From Squalus acanthias (lineage: Eukaryota): DNA of 64,000 nucleotides. Shown piece after piece: positions 7,209 through 61,682 of this stretch; within the stretch, counting starts at the first letter, position 1, and each line of letters starts with the position of its first letter. The stretch is from NCBI GenBank assembly GCA_030390025.1, contig CM059432.1, forward strand, positions 3,596,001 through 3,660,000, given 5' to 3'. Below the pieces are notes generated by a model that made no database searches, was not told where the DNA came from, and was given only the letters and a program-made list of their open reading frames with translations. Both the position numbers and the translations under genes were made by a program.

Positions 7209-7442
7209 TAACAGAAAAACGCTGGAAAAACTCAGCAGGCGAGGCAGCATCCGTGAAGAGAGAAACAGAGTTAACGTTTCAGGTCGAAGACCCTTCGTCA
7301 GACGAAAGTTCTGACGAAAGGTCTTCGACCTGAAACGTTAACTCTGTTTCTCTCTCCATGGATGCTGCCTGGCCTGCTGAGTTTTTCCAGCGTTTTTCTG
7401 TTGTTATTTCAGATTTCCAGCATCCGCAGTATTTTGCTATCG
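7209..7442 (+). mobile_element. PLE terminal hairpin insertion, family P1
   Basis: About 93-bp inverted arms (7210-7302, 7310-7402) plus 40-nt unpaired tail; 14-bp TSD TATAGAAGTGAACA (7195-7208, 7443-7456); same end sequence as the GIY-YIG-bearing copy at 8590-9339. Confidence 0.88.
7307..7343 (+). ncRNA. Minimal type I hammerhead ribozyme motif (P1)
   Basis: AGTT-CTGACGA-A-AGGTC/TTC/GACCT-GAAA-CGT-T-AACT: catalytic core, stems I and II, palindromic ACGT stem III. Confidence 0.75.
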
Positions 7443-8589: not shown

Positions 8590-9339
8590 TAACAACAGAA
8601 AATGCTGGAAACACTTAGCAGATCAGGCAGCATCGAGGAGGAGAAACAGAGTCAACGTTTCGGGTCGAACCCTTCGTCAGAACTGGAAAAGGTTAGAGAA
8701 GAGAGATTTTTAAGCAGGGAGAGGGGGGAGGGGAGGAAAGAACAAAGGGAAGGTCTGTGATAGGATGGAAGGCAGGAGAGATTAAGAGACAAAAGGGATG
8801 ATGGTGCAAGGCAAAAGGAGATGGTAATGGGACAAGTTAAGAAACAAAAGATGGCTCTAGATGAAGTGTGAATGATGATGGCAGCAACATTAACAGCTAC
8901 CATGTGAGGAAACAAGAGAAAAAAAATATATAAAGAAATACAGGTTATAGTCTGAAATTGTTGAACTCGATATTAAGTCCAGAAGGCTGTAAAGTGCCTA
9001 ATCGAAAGATGAGGGGCTGTTCCTCGCGTTTACATTGAGCTTCGTTGGAACAGTGTAAGAGGCCGAGGACGGAGAGATCAGAGTGGGAGTGGAGCGGAGA
9101 ATTAAAGTGACAGGCGACCGGAAGCTCTGGGTCACCCTTGCGGACTGAACGGAGGTGTTCCGCAAAGCAGTCACCCAATCTGCGTTTGGTCTCCCCAATG
9201 TAGAGGAGACTGTATCGTGAGCAGCGAATACAGTATACTAAATTACAAGAAGTACAAGTAAATCGCTGTTTCACCTGGAAGGAGTGTTTGGGGCCCTGGA
9301 CAGTGGGAAGGGAGGAGATAAAAGGCCATGTGTTGCATC
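8590..9339 (-). mobile_element. PLE 3' fragment (GIY-YIG endonuclease plus terminal repeat), family P1
   Basis: ORF 8945-9373 (-): NLVYCIRC..LYIGETKRRL..F.EH..HF..E..LI..L.T..PSGLN; interrupts Gypsy RT. Confidence 0.88.
8650..8684 (-). ncRNA. Minimal hammerhead ribozyme motif (P1)
   Basis: Minus strand AGTT-CTGACGA-A-GGGT/TCG/ACCC-GAAA-CGT-T-GACT. Confidence 0.7.
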
Positions 9340-10504
9340 GGCAAAAGGTTGACGCTGTCATCAATGCTCCCAAGCCACAGAACGTGTCTGAGTTAAGTTC
9401 TTTCCTTGGAATGGTCCAGTACTACGCACGTTTCTTACCTGAGTTAGCGACCATGTTAGCTCCATTGCACGAGCTCCTCAAGAAGGATGTCCAGTGGAAG
9501 TGTACAAGAGCGCAACAGGAAGCTTACGTCGCTTGTAAGAGAAGTCTCTCCAGCGATGCTCTACTTGTGCACTACGACACAGAGCGTGAGCTTAAGTTAG
9601 TGTGTGATGCTTCCAGCTACGGTGTGGGAGCTGTCATAAGCCACGTAATGGATGATGGCCAAGAGAACCCAATCGCATTCGCATTGCGAAACCGCGCAAA
9701 GAGCGAAGGAAACTACATGCAAATTGAAAAGGAAGCGCTTGCCATAGTGTTTGGAATCAAGAAATTCCAACAGTTCCTGACCAGCAGAAAGTTTATCCTG
9801 ATAACCGATCACAAACCGCTCCGAGCAATATTGGGGTCCAAATCTGCCATCCCTGCAATGACCGCATCAAGAATGCAACGTTGGGCAGTGTTGTTGTCAC
9901 AATATGACTACACGATTGAATATCGCACTTCAAAACAAAACACAATCGCAGAGGCATTGTCCAGGTTGCCACATGAGGACTCGTATATTGGGAGTGAAGG
10001 TGCGATTTTCACGCTAGGTGCAGTTGACAAAGACTTTCCCATGAATGCAACTGAGATTGCAGATGACACAGTACTGAAAAGAGTGTATGAAAACACCTTG
10101 AATGGACGGACTGATCAGTGAATGGACACAGAGTTGAAACCATTCCATAACCGACGTACTGAATTGTCTTGTGAGCAAGGTTGTGTCAAGTGGGGAAACA
10201 GAGTCTGGTACCTACTTCTTTGAGAGATAGAATTCTGGCCGAACTTCATACTGAACATCCAGGGATCATCAGTATGAAATCAATTGCAGGAAGCTTTGTT
10301 TACTGGCCTGGATTGGACAGTGATCGTGAACCACTTGATCATGAACACATACAGGAGTTTGACTCCATTCAGACTTCAGTAACTGAGGTACCAGGTTCAA
10401 TCAAGACTGAGATAGAAACAGGGTCATCTTTGAATTTGGAACCAAAACAAAACAGCCCGAAAATTGGTTCAATACCAAAATCTCTGAATCTTCTGTAAGG
10501 AGAC

Positions 10505-19659: not shown

Positions 19660-19798
19660 GCATCTCTTCACTTCACCTGACGAAGGAGCAGCGCTCCGAA
19701 AGCTTGTGATTTCAAATAAAGCTGTTGGACTATAACCTGGTGTTGTGCGACTTCTCACATTTGTCCACCCCAGTCCAACACCGGCATCTCCACATCAT
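19660..19798 (+). mobile_element. Putative PLE 3' terminal fragment, family P2
   Basis: Homologous to the right arm and tail of 51136-51587; no coding part seen, so PLE assignment rests on structure. Confidence 0.7.
19673..19709 (+). ncRNA. Minimal hammerhead ribozyme motif (P2)
   Basis: TCAC-CTGACGA-A-GGAGC/AGC/GCTCC-GAAA-GCT-T-GTGA. Confidence 0.78.
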
Positions 19799-19928: not shown

Positions 19929-22618
19929 TAACAACAGAAAGTGCTGGAAACACTCAGCAGATCAGGCAGCGCGAGGAGAGAGAAACAGAGTCAACGTTTT
20001 GAGCCGGGGACCCTTCGTCAGAACTGGAAAAGGTTAGGGAGGAGAGATTTTTAAGCAGGGGCAGGGAGGAGGGGAAGGAAAGAACAAAGGGAAAGTCTAT
20101 GGTAGGATGGAAGGCAGGAGAGACTAAATGACAAAACATAGAAACATAGAAGATAGGAGCAGGAGTAGGCCATTCAGCCCCTCGAGCCTGCTCTGCCATT
20201 CGATGAGATCATGGCTGATCATCTAAACTCAGTACCCTGTACCTGCCTTCTCCCCATATCCCTCGATACCTTTAGCTTTAAGAAATATATCTAACTCATC
20301 CTTGAATATATTTAATGACTTCGCCTCAACTACCTTCTGTGGTAGAGAATTCCACAGGTTCACCACTCTCTGGGTGAAGAAATTCTTCCTCATTTCTGTC
20401 CTAAATGGTTTACCCGTTATCCGTAGATTATGACCCCTGGTTCTGGACTCTCCGACCATCGGGAACATTCTTCCTGCATCTAGTTTGTCCAGACCTGTCA
20501 GAATTTTATATTTTTCGATGAGATCCCCTCTCATTCTTCTGTACTCCAGTGAGTATAAGCCCAATCGACCCAATCTCTCCTCATATGTCATTCCTGCCAT
20601 CCCAGGTATCAGCCTTGTGAATCTTCGCTGAACTCCTTCCATGGCAAGAACATCCTTCCTCAGATAAGGCGACCAAAACTGCACACAGTACTCAAGCTGT
20701 GGTCTCACCAAGGCCCTGTACAACTGCAGCAGGACATCCCTGTTCCTATACTCAAACCCTTTCGCTATGAAGGCCAACATACCATTTGCCTTCTTCACCG
20801 CCTGCTGCACCTGCATGCTTACTTTCAGCGACTGGTGCACAAGGACACCCAGGTCTCGTTGCACTTCCCCTTCTCCCAATCTATTGCCATTCAGATAATA
20901 GTCTGCCTTTCTGTTTTTGACACCAAAGTGGATAACCTCGCACTTATCCACGTTATATTGCATCTGCCACGCTTCTGCCCACTCACCCAACCTGTCCAGA
21001 TCATCCTGGAGTTTCTCGCTATCCTCCTCGCTGCACACACTCCCACCCAGCTTTGTGTCATCTGCAAACTTGGAGATATTACATTTAATTCCCTTATCTA
21101 GATCATTAATGTATATTGTGAATAGCTGGGGTCCAAGGACCGATCCCTGCGGTACCCCACTAGTCACTGCTTGCCACTCGGAAAAAGACCCATTAATTCC
21201 TACTCTCTGCTTTCTGTCCGCCAACCAGTTCTCTATCCAAGTCAATACCTTGCCCCCAATCCCATGTGCCTTAACTTTACCCGCTAATCTCTTATGCGGG
21301 ACCTTATCGAAAGCCTTTTGACAGTCCAAATACACCACATCTACTGCTTCTCCCTTATCTATTTTCCCAGTTACATCCTCAAAAAATTCCAGTAGATTAG
21401 TCAAGCACGATTTACCTTTTGTAAATCCATGTTGACTTTGTCCGATCCTGTCACTGTTTTTCAAATGCTCAGCTATTACATCCTTTATAATAGACTCTAG
21501 CATTTTCCCCACTACCGATGTCAGGCTTACCGGTCTGTAATTCCCCGCTTTCTCTCTACCACCCTTTTTGAATAGTGGGGTAACATTAGCTACCCTCCAA
21601 TCCATGGGTACAGTTCCAGATTCCATCGAATGTTGGAAGATGATCAGCAATGCATCTACTATTTCTAGGGCCACTTCCTTAAGTACCCTAGGATGTAGAT
21701 TATCAGGCCCTGGGGATTTATCGGCCTTCAATACCGTCAATTTCCCTAACACCATTTCCCTGCAAATACTGATTTCTTTCAGTTCCTCCCTTTCATCAGA
21801 CCGTATGTTCTCCAACATCTCTGGGAGGTTATTTGTGTCCTCCTTTGTGAAGACAGAACCAAAATATGCATTATATGGGCTGCCATTTCTTTGTTCCCCA
21901 TTATAACTTCCCCCGCTTCTGACTGCAAGGGACCTACACTTGATTTCACTAATCTTTTTCTCTTCACATATCTATAAAAGCTCTTACAGTCAGTTTTTAT
22001 GTTCCCAGCAAGCTTACTTTCATATTCTATTTTCCCCTTCTTAATTAATCCCTTTGTCCTCCTTTGTTGAATCCTAAACTGCTCCCAATCCTCAGGGCTA
22101 CCGCTTTTTCTGGCCAATTTATATGCCCTCTCCTTGGATCTTATGCTATCCCTAATTTCCCTTGTTAGCCACGGTTGAGTCTCCCTTTTTGTTTTATTCT
22201 TATGCCACACTGGGATGTACAAATTCTGTAGTTCATCCATGCAGTCTTTGAATGTTTGCCATTGCCTATCCACCGTCAACCCCTTGAGTGACATTCCCCA
22301 ATCAATCCTACCCAATTCGCGCCTCATACCATCGTAGTTTCCTTTATTTAAATTCAGGACCCTAGTCTCTGATTCAACTACTTCACTCTCCATCCTAATG
22401 AAGAATTCTATCATATTATGATCACTCTGACCCAAGGGGCCTCGTACAACAAGATTGCTAATTAATCCTTTCTCGTTGCATAATACCCAGTCGAAGATGG
22501 CCTGATCTCTGGTTGGTTCCTCGACATATTGTTCCAGAAAACCATCTCGTAAACATTCTAGGAATTCCTCCTCCACAGTATGATGGTGCGAGGGAAAAGG
22601 AGAGGTAATGGGACAAGA
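19929..22618 (-). mobile_element. PLE P1 terminal fragment (about 19929-20133 and 22580-22618) split by a CR1
   Basis: Collinear with 8590-8836; hammerhead core mutated (GAAA to AAAA). Confidence 0.75.
20134..22580 (-). mobile_element. CR1 LINE, 5'-truncated, long ORF2 stretch with one frameshift near 21870
   Basis: ORFs 21779-22702 and 20229-21818 (529 aa): [52 protein letters not shown]. Confidence 0.95.
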
Positions 22619-49067: not shown

Positions 49068-51181
49068 CTATCAAACTATAGCATATGTAGCATATTCTCC
49101 TTAGAGAAGCAAAGCTTAAGGGGAGGTTTGTTCAAAATCAGGAATGGTTTTGACTGAGTAAATAAGGAGAAACTGTTTCCAGTGGCAGGAGGGTCGGTAA
49201 CCAGAGGACACTGATTTAAGGTGATTGGCAAAAGAACCAGAGGGGGAGAGGAGGAGAATTTTATTCACTCAGCGAGTTGTTGTGATCTGGAACGCGCAGT
49301 CTGAAAGGGCGGGGGAAGCAGATTCAATAGTAACTTTCAAAACAGAATTGGATAAATACTTGAAGGGGAAGAATTTGCAGGGCTATGGGGGAAAGAGCAG
49401 GGGGGAGTGGGACTAATTGGAGAGCTCTTTCAAAGAGCCGGCACAGGCTCGATGGGCCGAATGGCCTCCTCCTGTGCTGTGCGATTCTGTGATTCTATGC
49501 TATGTGTGGAGGTCCTTGCAACACTAAGTACTCACTGCAGAATTTCATTTAAGTTTCATAAAAGTTGGTGATGCCCAGTAACCAAAACGTCAGTTCAACA
49601 TTAATGACCTGAATAGATGATTTCTTCCATACGATGTAAGTATTCAGCGGGTGAGCTACCGTATGGATCACTCGGTCAACTTACTGCTTAAATATTCATG
49701 GTTTTTCAACCAGCCCATCAGGGATTTCCAATACATACTTCACTTTAAAAATCATCAGCACTGGTGGTGTAATAGTTTGTGATTTATTGGAACCAAAGAC
49801 AGCGTTGAAAATCCGCCAGCTTTGTTTGTGCATTGAGAGCACAGAACAGTGGGGCAGGTGAAGCAAGCTCCTCCAGTAATTAGCACAGTCGCACATTCAA
49901 ATACTGCATCACAAGAACTACATCGGATCACACAGGAGATACAGCACAAGAAGGGGCCATTTGGCTGTCCATGCCGGCGTTTATGCTCCACTCGAGCCTC
50001 CTCCCGTCTTTCCTCATCTAACTCTATCAACATTACCCTCTAGAACTAGGGGGCATAATCTTAGAATAAGGGGCTGCTCTTTCAAAACTGAGATGAGGAG
50101 AAACTTCTTCACTCAGAGGGTAGTGGGTTTGTGGAATTTGCTGCCCCAGGAAGCTGTGGAAGCTACATCATTAAATAAATTTAAAACAGAAATAGATAGT
50201 TTCCTAGAGGTAAAGGGAATAAGGGGTTACGGTGAGCGGGCAGGAAATTGGACATGAGGCTGAGTTCGGATCGGTCAGGGCCCTGTGGGTGGCGGAGCGG
50301 GCCCAGGGGCTGAGTGGCCGGGTCCTGCTCCTACTTCTTGTGTTCTTTAGATTGGAGGTTAGGATCAGATCAGCCATGATCTTATTGAATGGCGGAGCAG
50401 GCTCGAGGGGCCGATTGGCCTACTCCTGCTCCTATTCTTATGTTCTTATGTTCCCTTCTCCCTCATGTGTTTATCTAGTTTCCCCATAAATGCATCTGTG
50501 CTATTTGCCTCAACCACTCCCTGTGGTAGCGAGTTCCACATTCTCACCACTCTCTGGGTAAAGAAGTTTCTCCTGAATTGCCTACTTGATTTCTTGGTGA
50601 CTATCTTATATTGAAGACCTCTAGTTATACTCTTCCCCTTTAATGGAAACACTCTCTCTGATGGAGCCACTCTAATGGAAACACTCTATCAAAACCTCTC
50701 ATAATTTTAAAGACCACTATTAGATCACCCTTCAGCCTTCTCTTTTCAAGAGAAAAGAGACCCAGCCTGTTCATAGAGTCATAGAGTCATAACGGCACAG
50801 AAGGAGGCCATTCGGCCCATCGAGTCTGTGCCGGCTCTCTGCAGAGCAATCCAGTCAGTCCCATTCCCCCGCTCTATCCCCGGAGCCCTGCAAGTTTATT
50901 TCCCTCAAGTGTCTATCCAGTTTCCCCTTGAAAACATCGAGTGTCTCCGCTTCCACTACTTCCGTCGGCAGCGAGTTCCAGGTCCTCACCACTCGCTGCG
51001 TAAAAAAGTTTTTCCTCACATCCCCCCTTTTATCTCTTGCCCAAAACCTTAAATCTGTGTCCCCTAGTCCTTGTACCATCAACTAGTGGGAACAGCCTTT
51101 CCCCGTCTAGCCTATCCAAACCCATCATAATCTTGAGAAGTCGCACAACACCAGGTTATAGTCCAACAGATTTATTTAATT

Positions 51182-51220
51182 TTACAAGCTTTCGAAGCAG
51201 TTCGCTCCTTCGTCAGGTAA
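51182..51220 (-). ncRNA. Minimal hammerhead ribozyme motif (P2, left arm)
   Basis: Reverse complement of 51458-51496. Confidence 0.75.
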
Positions 51221-51457
51221 GTTAGCAATGAGAGAATCTCCCAGAATTCACAATTTAAACCCAGACAAAATCTATTCACATTATTCCCTACAACAAAGAG
51301 CACAGCCAAGACAATGAGATGTGTCCCAGGGGGTCCAACGTGTCAAACCTGGGACACATCTCATTGTCTTGGCTGTGCTCTTTGTTGTAGGGAATAATGT
51401 GAATAGATTTTGTCTGGGTTTAAATTGTGAATTCTGGGAGATTCTCTCATTGCTAAC

Positions 51458-51496
51458 TTACCTGACGAAGGAGCGAACTGCTTCGAAAGCTTGTAA
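51458..51496 (+). ncRNA. Minimal hammerhead ribozyme motif (P2, right arm)
   Basis: TTAC-CTGACGA-A-GGAGC/GAACT/GCTTC-GAAA-GCT-T-GTAA. Confidence 0.78.
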
Positions 51497-51932
51497 AATT
51501 AAATAAATCTGTTGGACTATAACGTGGTGTTGTGCGACTTCTCATTTTTGTCCACCCCAGTCCAACGCCGGCATCTCCACATCATGACCATCATAATCTT
51601 GTACACCTCTATCAAATCACCCCTCAACCTCCTTTGCTCTAATGAAAACAAATCCAGCTTCTCCAACCTGTCCTTGTAGCTAAGATCCCCCATCCCCGGA
51701 ACCATTCTGGTAAATCTCCTCTGCATCCTCTCATCCTTTGCTGATGGGTATAACCTCTCAGTCTGGTATCATCCTTCTAAATCCTTTCTGCACCCTCTCC
51801 AGTGCCTCTATATCCTTTTCATAATATGGCGACCAGAACTGTACATAGTATTCCAAGTGTGGTCTAACCAAGGTTCCAAACAAGTTTAGCATAACTTTCA
51901 ACTTTAGAACCATTTCATAGCAATGCAACAGT

Positions 51933-59344: not shown

Positions 59345-60481
59345 CATAAGAACATACGAATTAGGAGCAGGAGTTGGCCATTCGGCCCCTCGAGCCTGCT
59401 CCGCCATTCAACAAGATCATGGCCGATCTTCTTCCTCATCTCCAATTTCCCGCCCGATCCCCATATCCCTTGATTCCCCTAGAGTCCAAAAATCTATCGA
59501 TCCCTGTCTTGAATATACTCAACGACTGAGCCTCCACAGCCCTCTGGGGTAGAGAATTCCAAAGATTCACCACCCTCTGAGTGAAGACATTTCTCCTCAT
59601 CTCAGTCCTAAAGGGCCGACCCCTTATTCTGAGACTGTGACCCCTAGTTCTAGACTCCCCAGCCAGGGGAAACATCTTCCCTGCATCTACCCTGTCAAGC
59701 TCTGTAAGAAGTTTGCATGTTTCAATGAGATTACCTCTCATTCTTCTCAACTCTAGAGAATATAGTCCTAGTCTACTCAATCTGTCCTCATAGGACAATC
59801 CCCCCATCCCAGGAACCGGTCTGGTGAACCTTCGTTGCACTCCCTCTATGGCAAGTATATGCTTCCTTAGATAAGGAGACCAAAACTGTACACAATACTC
59901 CAGGTGTGGTCTCACCAGGGCCCTATATAATTGCAGTAAGACGTCTTTACTCTTATACTCAAATCCACTTGTAATAAAGGCCAACATACCATTTGCTTTC
60001 CTAATTGCTTGCTGTACCTGCATGTTAACTTTCAGTGATTCGTGTACAAGGACACCCAGGTCCCTCTGAACACCAACATTTCCCAATCTCTCACCATTTA
60101 AAAAATACTCTGCTTTTCTATTTTTCCTACCAAAGTGGATAACTTCACATTTCTCCACACTATATTCCATTTGCCACGTTCTTGCCCACTCACTGAGACT
60201 GTCTATAGCCCCTTGAAGCCTCCTTGCATCCTCCTCACAACTTACATTCCCACCCAGCTTTGTATCATCAGCAAACTTGGATATATTACATTTAGTCCCC
60301 TCATCCAAATCATTGATGTAGATTGTGAATAGCTGAGGCCCAAGCACTGATCCTTGTGGTACCCTACTAGTTATAGCCTGCCAACCCGAAAATGACCCGT
60401 TTATTCCTACTCTCTGTTTCCTGTCCATTAACCAATCCTCAATCCATGCTAGTATATTACCCCCAATCCCATGAGCCCTAA
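59345..60481 (-). mobile_element. CR1 RT to 3' end, open reading frame
   Basis: ORF 59436-60524: [26 protein letters not shown]; same subfamily as 17617-19030. Confidence 0.93.
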
Positions 60482-61682
60482 TTCCAGAGCTTGAGGCCCA
60501 GGCAGTGGAAAGCATGGCAGCCAATGGTGGGGTGAAGGAAATCGGGGATGCTCAAGAGGCCAGAATTCTTTGATGAAAACAGTGCTGATGCTGGAGGACG
60601 TGCGACACATGACTTTAGAATCCAGACCGGTGTCGTGGGGAGAACTCTCTTTCTCTTTTCCACGTTTCCCACATTACAACAGTGACTACGCTCCAAAAAA
60701 TACTTCATGGGCTGTAAAGCGCTTTGAGACGTCCGGTGGTCGTGAAAGGCGCTGTAGAAATGCAAGTCTTTTCTTTCTTTTTTTCTTCTTTGAAATAGTG
60801 GCTGTAGGATCTTTCACGCCCACCTGAGAGGGCAGACGGGGCCTCGATTTAGTGTCTCTTCTGAAAGACGGCACCTCCTAAAGGCAGCACCTCCGATAGT
60901 GCAGCACTCCCTCAGCCTAGATTTTTGTCCTCAAGTCTCTGGAGTGGGACTTGAACCCACAACCTTCTGACTGAACAACAACAACAACAACAACTTGTAT
61001 TTACACAGCGCCTTTAACGTAGTAAAATGTCCCAAGGCGCGTCACAGGAGCGATTATCAGACAAAATTTGACACCGAGCCACATAAGGAGACATTAGGAC
61101 AGGTGACCAAAACCTTGGTCAAAGAGGGAGGTTTTCTAAGGAACGACTTAAAGGAGGAGAGAGAGGTGGAGAGGTTTAGGGAGGTGAGACTGCTACACAC
61201 TGAGCCACAGCTCACCCCTTATACAAAATGTGGGCAGGCCCAAAAGCCAGAACAATGTGCATGATTGCTGTAACCATCCGATTCAAACAAGGCATCTCTC
61301 TGTCTTCTCCACATCCATTAAAGTTATTAGACACTGAGTCAGAACGCTGTCTGTTTCTGCATGTTGGTAAATCCCAAGGGACCAGAGGATCTGAAAGACT
61401 GTTTCTTCAGAATATCGCCACTGCATTCTCGCTCTCTTATCGCCCGCGAGCTGTCTTTTGACATGGCAGGATATGAGTAAGTATCTGACCGCAGCAGAGC
61501 CAGTGCAAGGCTGCTCGAAATTATCCACAAGGGAATATTGGAAATGTGCTCTTGCAGGCTTTAAAACATTGATCTGCCGATCGCTGCGTCAACAATTGCA
61601 TGTGATTCTGCTGGGTTGCAGTTTTCTGGTCCCACAGGTATGAGGTTAAACTTGGAATGGGGTGGGGGAGGGGCAGAACAGA

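Follow-up and report, generated by a model that had tools for sequence, protein, structure and literature searches.

A palindromic insertion with paired hammerhead motifs in Squalus acanthias as a probable fossil of Penelope-like element integration

The window analyzed here, a stretch of 64,000 nucleotides of Squalus acanthias DNA, contains a long hairpin with a hammerhead motif on each strand, which raises the question of what kind of element gave rise to it and how it came to be inserted as a palindrome. The insert (51136-51587) is flanked by exact 14-bp direct repeats, i.e., a target site duplication (TSD), CCATCATAATCTTG, present as identical copies at 51122-51135 and 51588-51601 on the plus strand. 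It splits a LINE fragment at 50880-51740 (minus strand), identified by frame reading as the C-terminus of an ORF2 and presumably of the CR1 type. An earlier note on this DNA had placed the TSD inside a CR1, and the host frame (the C-terminus of the LINE reverse transcriptase, RT) indeed continues across the TSD, with ...DLIEVYKIMM on one side. The palindrome arms, at 51134-51330 and 51348-51544, are 197 nt long (196 nt when the base common to the TSD is omitted), are separated by a spacer of 17 nt and differ at a single position (51154/51524), confirming the near-perfect hairpin with one mismatch that had been described. A read-through transcript would, as had been proposed, form a long dsRNA, with a predicted folding energy of -373 kcal/mol. 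The approximately 110 nt upstream of the ribozyme match nothing else in the window, as had been stated, apart from a single 17-nt match at E 0.16.

Numbered from the ATG of the parent ORF described below, the inverted arm (51134-51349, minus strand) corresponds to positions -254 to -39 of a pseudo-LTR (pLTR), whereas the direct arm (51348-51589, plus strand) corresponds to positions -235 to +6. The former ends at a site designated A and the latter at a site designated B. Comparison of the two arms indicates that the insert consists of two antisense-started copies of one pLTR, one from each site. The 17-nt loop formerly assigned to the hairpin holds as a spacing, but not as filler: 51331-51347, read in reverse complement, equals the 17 element bases directly upstream of the right-arm start. 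The loop is thus part of the element and of the left arm, whose 5' end merely extends 19 nt further. The arms overlap by 2 nt (CC) at the centre junction (51348-51349), which sits at a predicted RNA hairpin. The tail (51545-51587, plus strand, approximately 43-44 nt) lies between the two start sites and has the ORF ATG (51584-51586) at its end; the earlier description of an inverted partial copy with a 3' tail is thus borne out. At either end the window's copy displays 2 nt of microhomology, since the last 2 nt of the left TSD copy also match the element at site A and the first 2 nt (CC) of the right TSD copy equal the continuation of the element into the ORF at site B. The substitution that breaks the palindrome, at 51524 on the plus strand, is private to the right arm, the left-arm base being found in 29/29 other best copies.

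To identify the parent family, the DNA was searched against its own 3.7-Gb genome. This yielded 911 candidates, of which the best 40 scored were the window's copy and 39 others at approximately 99.6% identity; per-site differences were tabulated for 30 of them. An exact 30-mer of the ribozyme core had approximately 2,070 matches in the genome, and its reversed control had none. Upstream of the arm, sister copies contain both a 3' UTR and the terminal part of a GIY-YIG domain, and downstream of the tail two of them run on into an ORF starting at the last codon of the tail, the ATG. One locus, L032, comprises a pLTR, an open 892-aa ORF and a second pLTR. The copy search that had been suggested for the arm therefore does reach an ORF with RT and GIY-YIG domains, and the assignment to Penelope-like elements (PLEs) with minimal type I hammerheads stands. 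The 892-aa protein matched RVT_1 (E 5.6e-8); the Pfam GIY-YIG model gave no score on it, while being listed for many relatives. In an alignment of 51 proteins, the motifs DKG, YIDD, CX4CxxC and VVY...YIG were 96-100% conserved, apart from their variable positions, as were the C, C, H, H, R, E and N residues and the cysteines of the linker CHGNLCKTC (753-761 of the ORF). A sister copy thus possesses the single ORF with RT and C-terminal GIY-YIG with CCHH that defines endonuclease-bearing (EN+) PLEs, and a pLTR organization is evident from partial tandems at L031, L032 and L108 and from 64 inverted insertions with a one-sided tail; the pLTR also contains the putative hammerhead motif expected of this group. 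A sequence search of the PDB with the 892-aa ORF gave 0 matches. The best named matches to it were shark proteins at 79-93%, and the best matches also included unnamed shark, turtle and invertebrate proteins.

A CX2-5CxxC linker between RT and EN is described for Neptune and Nematis and as absent from Penelope/Poseidon in PMC8557442, so the CX4CxxC linker places the shark element with Neptune or Nematis and not with Penelope/Poseidon. Of these two, Neptune is our tentative reading, chosen over Nematis on the basis of the vertebrate host. On sequence grounds, we identify the window's hairpin as a dead, doubly 5'-truncated and 5'-inverted copy of a coding, putatively Neptune-type PLE, of whose ORF only the ATG is retained. 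An older relative at 19670-19798 (plus strand; 88.5% identity over 131 nt) is a stub of the same lineage that starts approximately 7 nt before the hammerhead core, has a tail and carries a compensatory change in stem I.

The hammerhead cores noted in each arm are present at 51462 (plus strand) and 51216 (minus strand). By its sequence, and with the anatomy given in PMC4209133, the minimal type I motif spans 51458-51496 (plus strand), its mirror being placed by symmetry at 51182-51220 (minus strand). It is made up of stem I (UUAC/GUAA), the core CUGACGA (51462-51468), an extra A, a stem II of 5-6 bp and GAAA, with a palindromic AGCU standing where stem III would be; cleavage is predicted after 51492, at the triplet CUU. 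Rfam did not match a hammerhead in the window, its four matches at E<=1 all being to miRNA models on other hairpins. When 48 arms were selected irrespective of the core, 47 of them retained an intact CUGANGA, and position N7 was C in 26, G in 14 plus the one variant, and A in 7. Loop II varies among subfamilies and stem I covaries, i.e., UUAC/GUAA here versus UCAC/GUGA in the older family. The conserved core, free position 7 and covarying stems are those expected of a minimal hammerhead ribozyme (min-HHR), as judged by sequence.

Only 2/55 arms end within 5 nt of the predicted cut, suggesting that cleaved RNA is not the usual template; another 12/55 end between the start of the core and about -155. 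Truncation at the ribozyme cut had been suggested by the 11,520 matches of a 30-mer 3' of the cut as against 2,070 for the core, and was rejected because the excess derives from other subfamilies with variant stem II loops. The hammerhead would seem to be a passenger of the pLTR: stem III would need a second sense copy, which the head-to-head insert would provide on neither strand. Among loci L127-L176, many copies begin just upstream of the ribozyme (51452-51466 and mirror), possibly marking an RNA 5' end or an RT stop. In addition, the antisense of the ribozyme 5' edge (51214-51226, plus strand) reads CAG|GTAAGT, which we take to be the consensus splice donor and which the palindrome offers to transcription in either direction; this likeness is not kept in all subfamilies and is probably a coincidence.

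We then compared the ends of sister copies in two samples. Sample 1 combined the 30 best-match loci with those surrounding the first 100 exact core matches on contig 1; sample 2 consisted of 49 loci, taken from the first 60 genome matches to the 3' 30-mer, together with one locus found via the centre junction. The 3' ends cluster in two windows relative to the ATG, namely A (-44 to -28) and B (-6 to +14). In sample 1, an exact TSD was found in 53/61 candidate inverted pairs, all 53 of which combine one A end with one B end. The eight pairs without a TSD were six A+B and two B+B; these two B+B pairs span 1.2 and 3.6 kb and are probably separate neighbours. Sample 2 gave a TSD in 11/13 inverted pairs, again all A+B (11/11); the pairs left out were one A+B and one that was mis-scored owing to an internal deletion. 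Both samples together thus show A+B in 64/64 TSD-bounded inverted insertions, with a TSD of 12-14 bp in 63/64 (52/53 and 11/11). Ends scored as non-inverted were 21 A and 12 B (n=33, about three of which are really halves of inverted pairs); 22/33 had a TSD of 7-15 bp, and half of these (11/22) were shorter than 12 bp. The targets are AT-rich and bear a loose C-T-G-C-Y flank at both halves, to which the window's own target is a poor fit. By information content, a fixed 12-nt stagger (3.91) was not favoured over one of 10 or 11 nt (3.98 and 3.63).

Some targets recur in CR1-type repeats, in either orientation (L016, L030, L032, L086, L088, L091, L122; L021, L051, L077; L033, L100). Recurrent 5' truncations were also observed at -603/-604 (L005, L007, L016, L089) and at -235 (L001, L004, L014, a set that is partly query-selected), and these points apparently coincide with local inverted repeats of the element.

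We consider it fairly probable that these insertions arise by twin target-primed reverse transcription, in which the two strands of a staggered cut both prime on a single RNA, aided by short primer pairing. The GIY-YIG endonuclease would nick both strands approximately 12-14 nt apart at an AT-rich site with a loose CTGCY flank, leaving 3' overhangs, and the target 3' ends would each pair by a few bases with unprocessed element RNA at A and B, probably with both primers on one RNA and probably via two RT subunits. Both cDNAs would extend upstream, halting in the window's copy near the hairpin (about -260 to -232), and their ends would then join by a 2-nt overlap or by fold-back, with repair completing the palindrome. 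The length of the tail (approximately 44 nt) would equal the distance between start sites A and B.

Twin priming from one RNA is to be weighed against single priming, in which the 3' end of one cDNA would copy itself on a hairpin and a short second cDNA would merely close the gap, so that the second arm would be a copy of the first cDNA and not of the RNA. Arm 5' ends lie within 20 nt of each other in 15/56 insertions versus 3.3 expected (8/45 versus 1.9 without the ribozyme-edge stubs, and 5/30 versus 1.5, p=0.011, on contig 1 alone), and such near-symmetric centres would be explained by fold-back, as would the private changes common to both arms, among them a 9-nt deletion; 13 private positions were shared. 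In favour of one RNA as the template, the two arms share an allele in 102/103 comparisons over four polymorphic sites, with approximately 82 expected and a gap as the sole miss, and the near-symmetric 5' ends and common private changes point the same way; the shared alleles could also be due to fold-back copying, to arm-to-arm conversion or to a single source being active at a time. The window's centre is on a predicted hairpin, and its exact 30-mer has two genome matches, the second at a locus of a 91%-identical subfamily with different flanks and its own 13-bp TSD, so this junction arose twice on the predicted hairpin. Moreover, self-priming has been put forward for palindromes at inverted junctions (PMC3846280). 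Nevertheless, the arm ends are far apart in 41/56 insertions, and the centre of L030, where both arms end on one base without a loop, and two loci joined via the palindromic AGCT of stem II fit two cDNA ends meeting. Filler replaces the overlap at 26/56 centre junctions, which implies that the centre join is more than one process. Fold-back still requires priming at A and B and is thus a variant of the centre step only; it may apply to the window's copy in particular, but as a general account we regard it as unlikely.

A second rival concerns the outer junctions, where initiation might be homology-free, with overlaps arising later through repair trimming or annealing, or through a nuclease that prefers element-like targets. 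Homology-free initiation has been reported in vitro (PMC11167929), the arm-TSD overlaps are typically just 1-4 nt, and CR1 hot spots match the ORF start over as many as 8 nt (seven loci in one cluster). To assess this, we scored the overlap between TSD and element continuation against 5,000 shuffles in which element end positions were exchanged between targets, preserving target composition and the site A/B windows, collapsing 10 repeated-target loci (n=43) and scoring two junctions with an extra base as zero overlap. The excess persisted: the overlap was 2.28 nt at site A versus 0.98±0.16 nt when shuffled, and 2.16 nt at site B versus 0.76±0.16 nt (p=0.0002 for each), with zero overlap at only 3/43 (A) and 4/43 (B) junctions. 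The 28 loci taken in chromosome order, which are free of best-match bias, gave 2.50 versus 0.92 (A) and 2.14 versus 0.73 (B). Similar values were obtained in sample 2 (n=11, mostly other subfamilies), i.e., 1.91 versus 1.13 (A, p=0.005) and 1.82 versus 0.72 (B, p=0.002), and with the 12-nt core alone as overhang at least 1 nt of overlap was still found at 74/84 junctions. Inverted copies have TSDs within the narrow range of 12-14 bp, which implies untrimmed target ends, whereas the TSDs of non-inverted copies are often shorter. The overlaps are short and could originate in end joining at the repair stage; overall, however, we find homology-free initiation improbable. Homology-assisted priming appears to be the best reading of these junctions, and would qualify the in vitro claim of homology-free initiation (PMC11167929).

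The least credible accounts, to which we attach very little weight, are a non-coding, retrozyme-like element, as had been entertained in the earlier note, and an assembly fold-back. Retrozymes are non-autonomous, non-coding elements that have tandem or circular RNA and short tandem units bearing canonical hammerheads. No ORF lies in the insert itself, but its sister copies run into the 3' UTR, the GIY-YIG end and the ORF start and on both sides pass into an open PLE ORF, so a coding partner exists in cis. An artefact is countered by the exact TSD, the asymmetric tail, the private mismatch, 64 similar structures with their own TSDs and the identical centre junction at the other locus with different flanks, all of which favour a real insertion. 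Contigs of four public runs were compared with the left flank and arm, and those of four with the centre; none among the matches listed bridges the centre, which is no evidence either way. The empty-site join was seen, but as the CR1 flank is multi-copy it bears on neither polymorphism nor absence. Of the 20 public runs listed, none is on record as RNA.

Returning to twin priming, the chances seem to us evenly balanced that it is obligate in PLEs, with a dimer that makes a 12-14-nt staggered cut, both target 3' ends brought onto a single RNA at two fixed windows, and 1-4 nt of pairing that sets each start to the exact base. If true, this single step would explain the tail and the inverted pLTR as well as the tight TSD and the symmetric palindromes; initiation in vivo would then be homology-assisted, against the sole in vitro study. 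In L1 twin priming, the other target strand likewise acts as primer for a second cDNA, and the resulting inversion has a microhomology join; this primer anneals at an internal position, and there is hardly any overlap between the pieces. Unlike in L1, the primers here lie at fixed sites approximately 40 nt apart, and so the pieces overlap and form a palindrome.

The inverted pLTR, tail, TSD and min-HHR are already in print (PMC8557442, PMC3846280, PMC4209133, PMC11167929). Canonical EN+ PLEs have an inverted 5'-truncated copy and a 30-40-bp tail (PMC8557442, PMC3846280) and share with the shark element a pLTR over the ORF start, an adjoining inverted truncated copy, a one-sided tail, a TSD, partial tandems and a single ORF with RT and C-terminal GIY-YIG. 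Here, unlike in those elements, the structure is cut down to two pLTR stubs, the tail is approximately 43 nt and the TSD 12-14 bp, whereas the rotifer examples have 8-10 bp. Neither the A+B rule nor the 3'-junction microhomology counted here is reported in the sections consulted of PMC8557442 and PMC3846280, the latter giving microhomology at a 5' junction and in deletions only, and no report of either for PLEs was found in the portion of the open literature searched. In line with twin priming, Poseidon PAc of Anolis carolinensis, a predicted dimer, cleaves and extends both strands in vitro, and its two starts bound the tail (PMC11167929). The shark element resembles PAc in having two such starts and, presumably, in the cutting and extension of both strands, as well as in its AT-rich target and in that hammerhead-cleaved RNA is not the main template. 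In PAc, however, the starts lie 111-118 nt inside the ORF and the ATG within the ribozyme, whereas the shark sites flank the ATG, with the ribozyme 90-125 nt upstream (PMC11167929). The 1-4-nt overlaps of the shark element also differ from the homology-free initiation reported for PAc, and junction figures S1B and S2 of that study may bear on the homology claim. The linker likewise sets the shark element apart from Penelope/Poseidon (PMC8557442). PMC4209133 describes min-HHRs in fish Neptune PLEs, with low activity and as dimers only. Like the metazoan PLE min-HHRs described there, the predicted motif has a 4-bp helix I, an extra base between 9 and 10.1, a G10.1-C11.1 pair and a palindromic 15.2-16.2, and such motifs are often on opposite strands 100-700 bp apart; its helix II is 5-6 bp versus 7-8 bp, and its predicted cut triplet is CUU.

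The locus is one of thousands of dead copies, and its value is that of a fossil of PLE integration, a process whose later steps the one in vitro study leaves open (PMC11167929). The counts from sister copies (A+B in 64/64, TSDs of 12-14 bp, microhomology at both ends and arms with the same allele) yield precise predictions, and the open 892-aa ORF provides a second PLE clade in which to test them.

The insertion had also been called very recent, which holds in a relative sense only. Arm divergence is 1/197 (0.51%) in the window's copy, compared with a mean of 0.49% (67/13,772 sites) over 54 sister pairs, which puts its age near the average of the subfamily; non-CpG substitutions between arms amount to 26/12,739. 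With the rate reported for the epaulette shark (7e-10 per generation; PMC10587355), the subfamily is about 1.5 million generations old and the window's copy of the order of a million (0.09-20 million), figures that errors of RT and assembly would bias upward. This young subfamily still keeps an open ORF.

Several further features were observed. The start of the tail (51535-51561, plus strand) has a pyrimidine tract leading to CAG approximately 22 nt before the ATG and resembles a 3' splice site; in Penelope, an intron in the 5'-UTR is described (PMC8557442). All 20 ORFs of at least 150 aa in the window were scanned and none matched a host gene, four matching RT or RNase H only; short exons would escape such a scan. 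An unrelated hairpin at 7241-7370, in which each arm starts at a CTGACGA hammerhead-like core and the spacer is 9 nt, probably represents a different PLE family in the form of an inverted stub; the Rfam match on it is to a miRNA model, below the gathering score. ORFs with RT or RNase H similarity are located at 9204-10121 (plus strand), which we take to be an LTR-type RT-RNase H ORF, and at 20229-21971 and 59436-60551 (both minus strand), presumably LINE-type RT ORFs. Finally, a further PLE left a fragment at 8600-9277 (minus strand), in which a GIY-YIG stretch covers 8972-9277 (39% to the 892-aa ORF) and position 8680 has a hammerhead motif.
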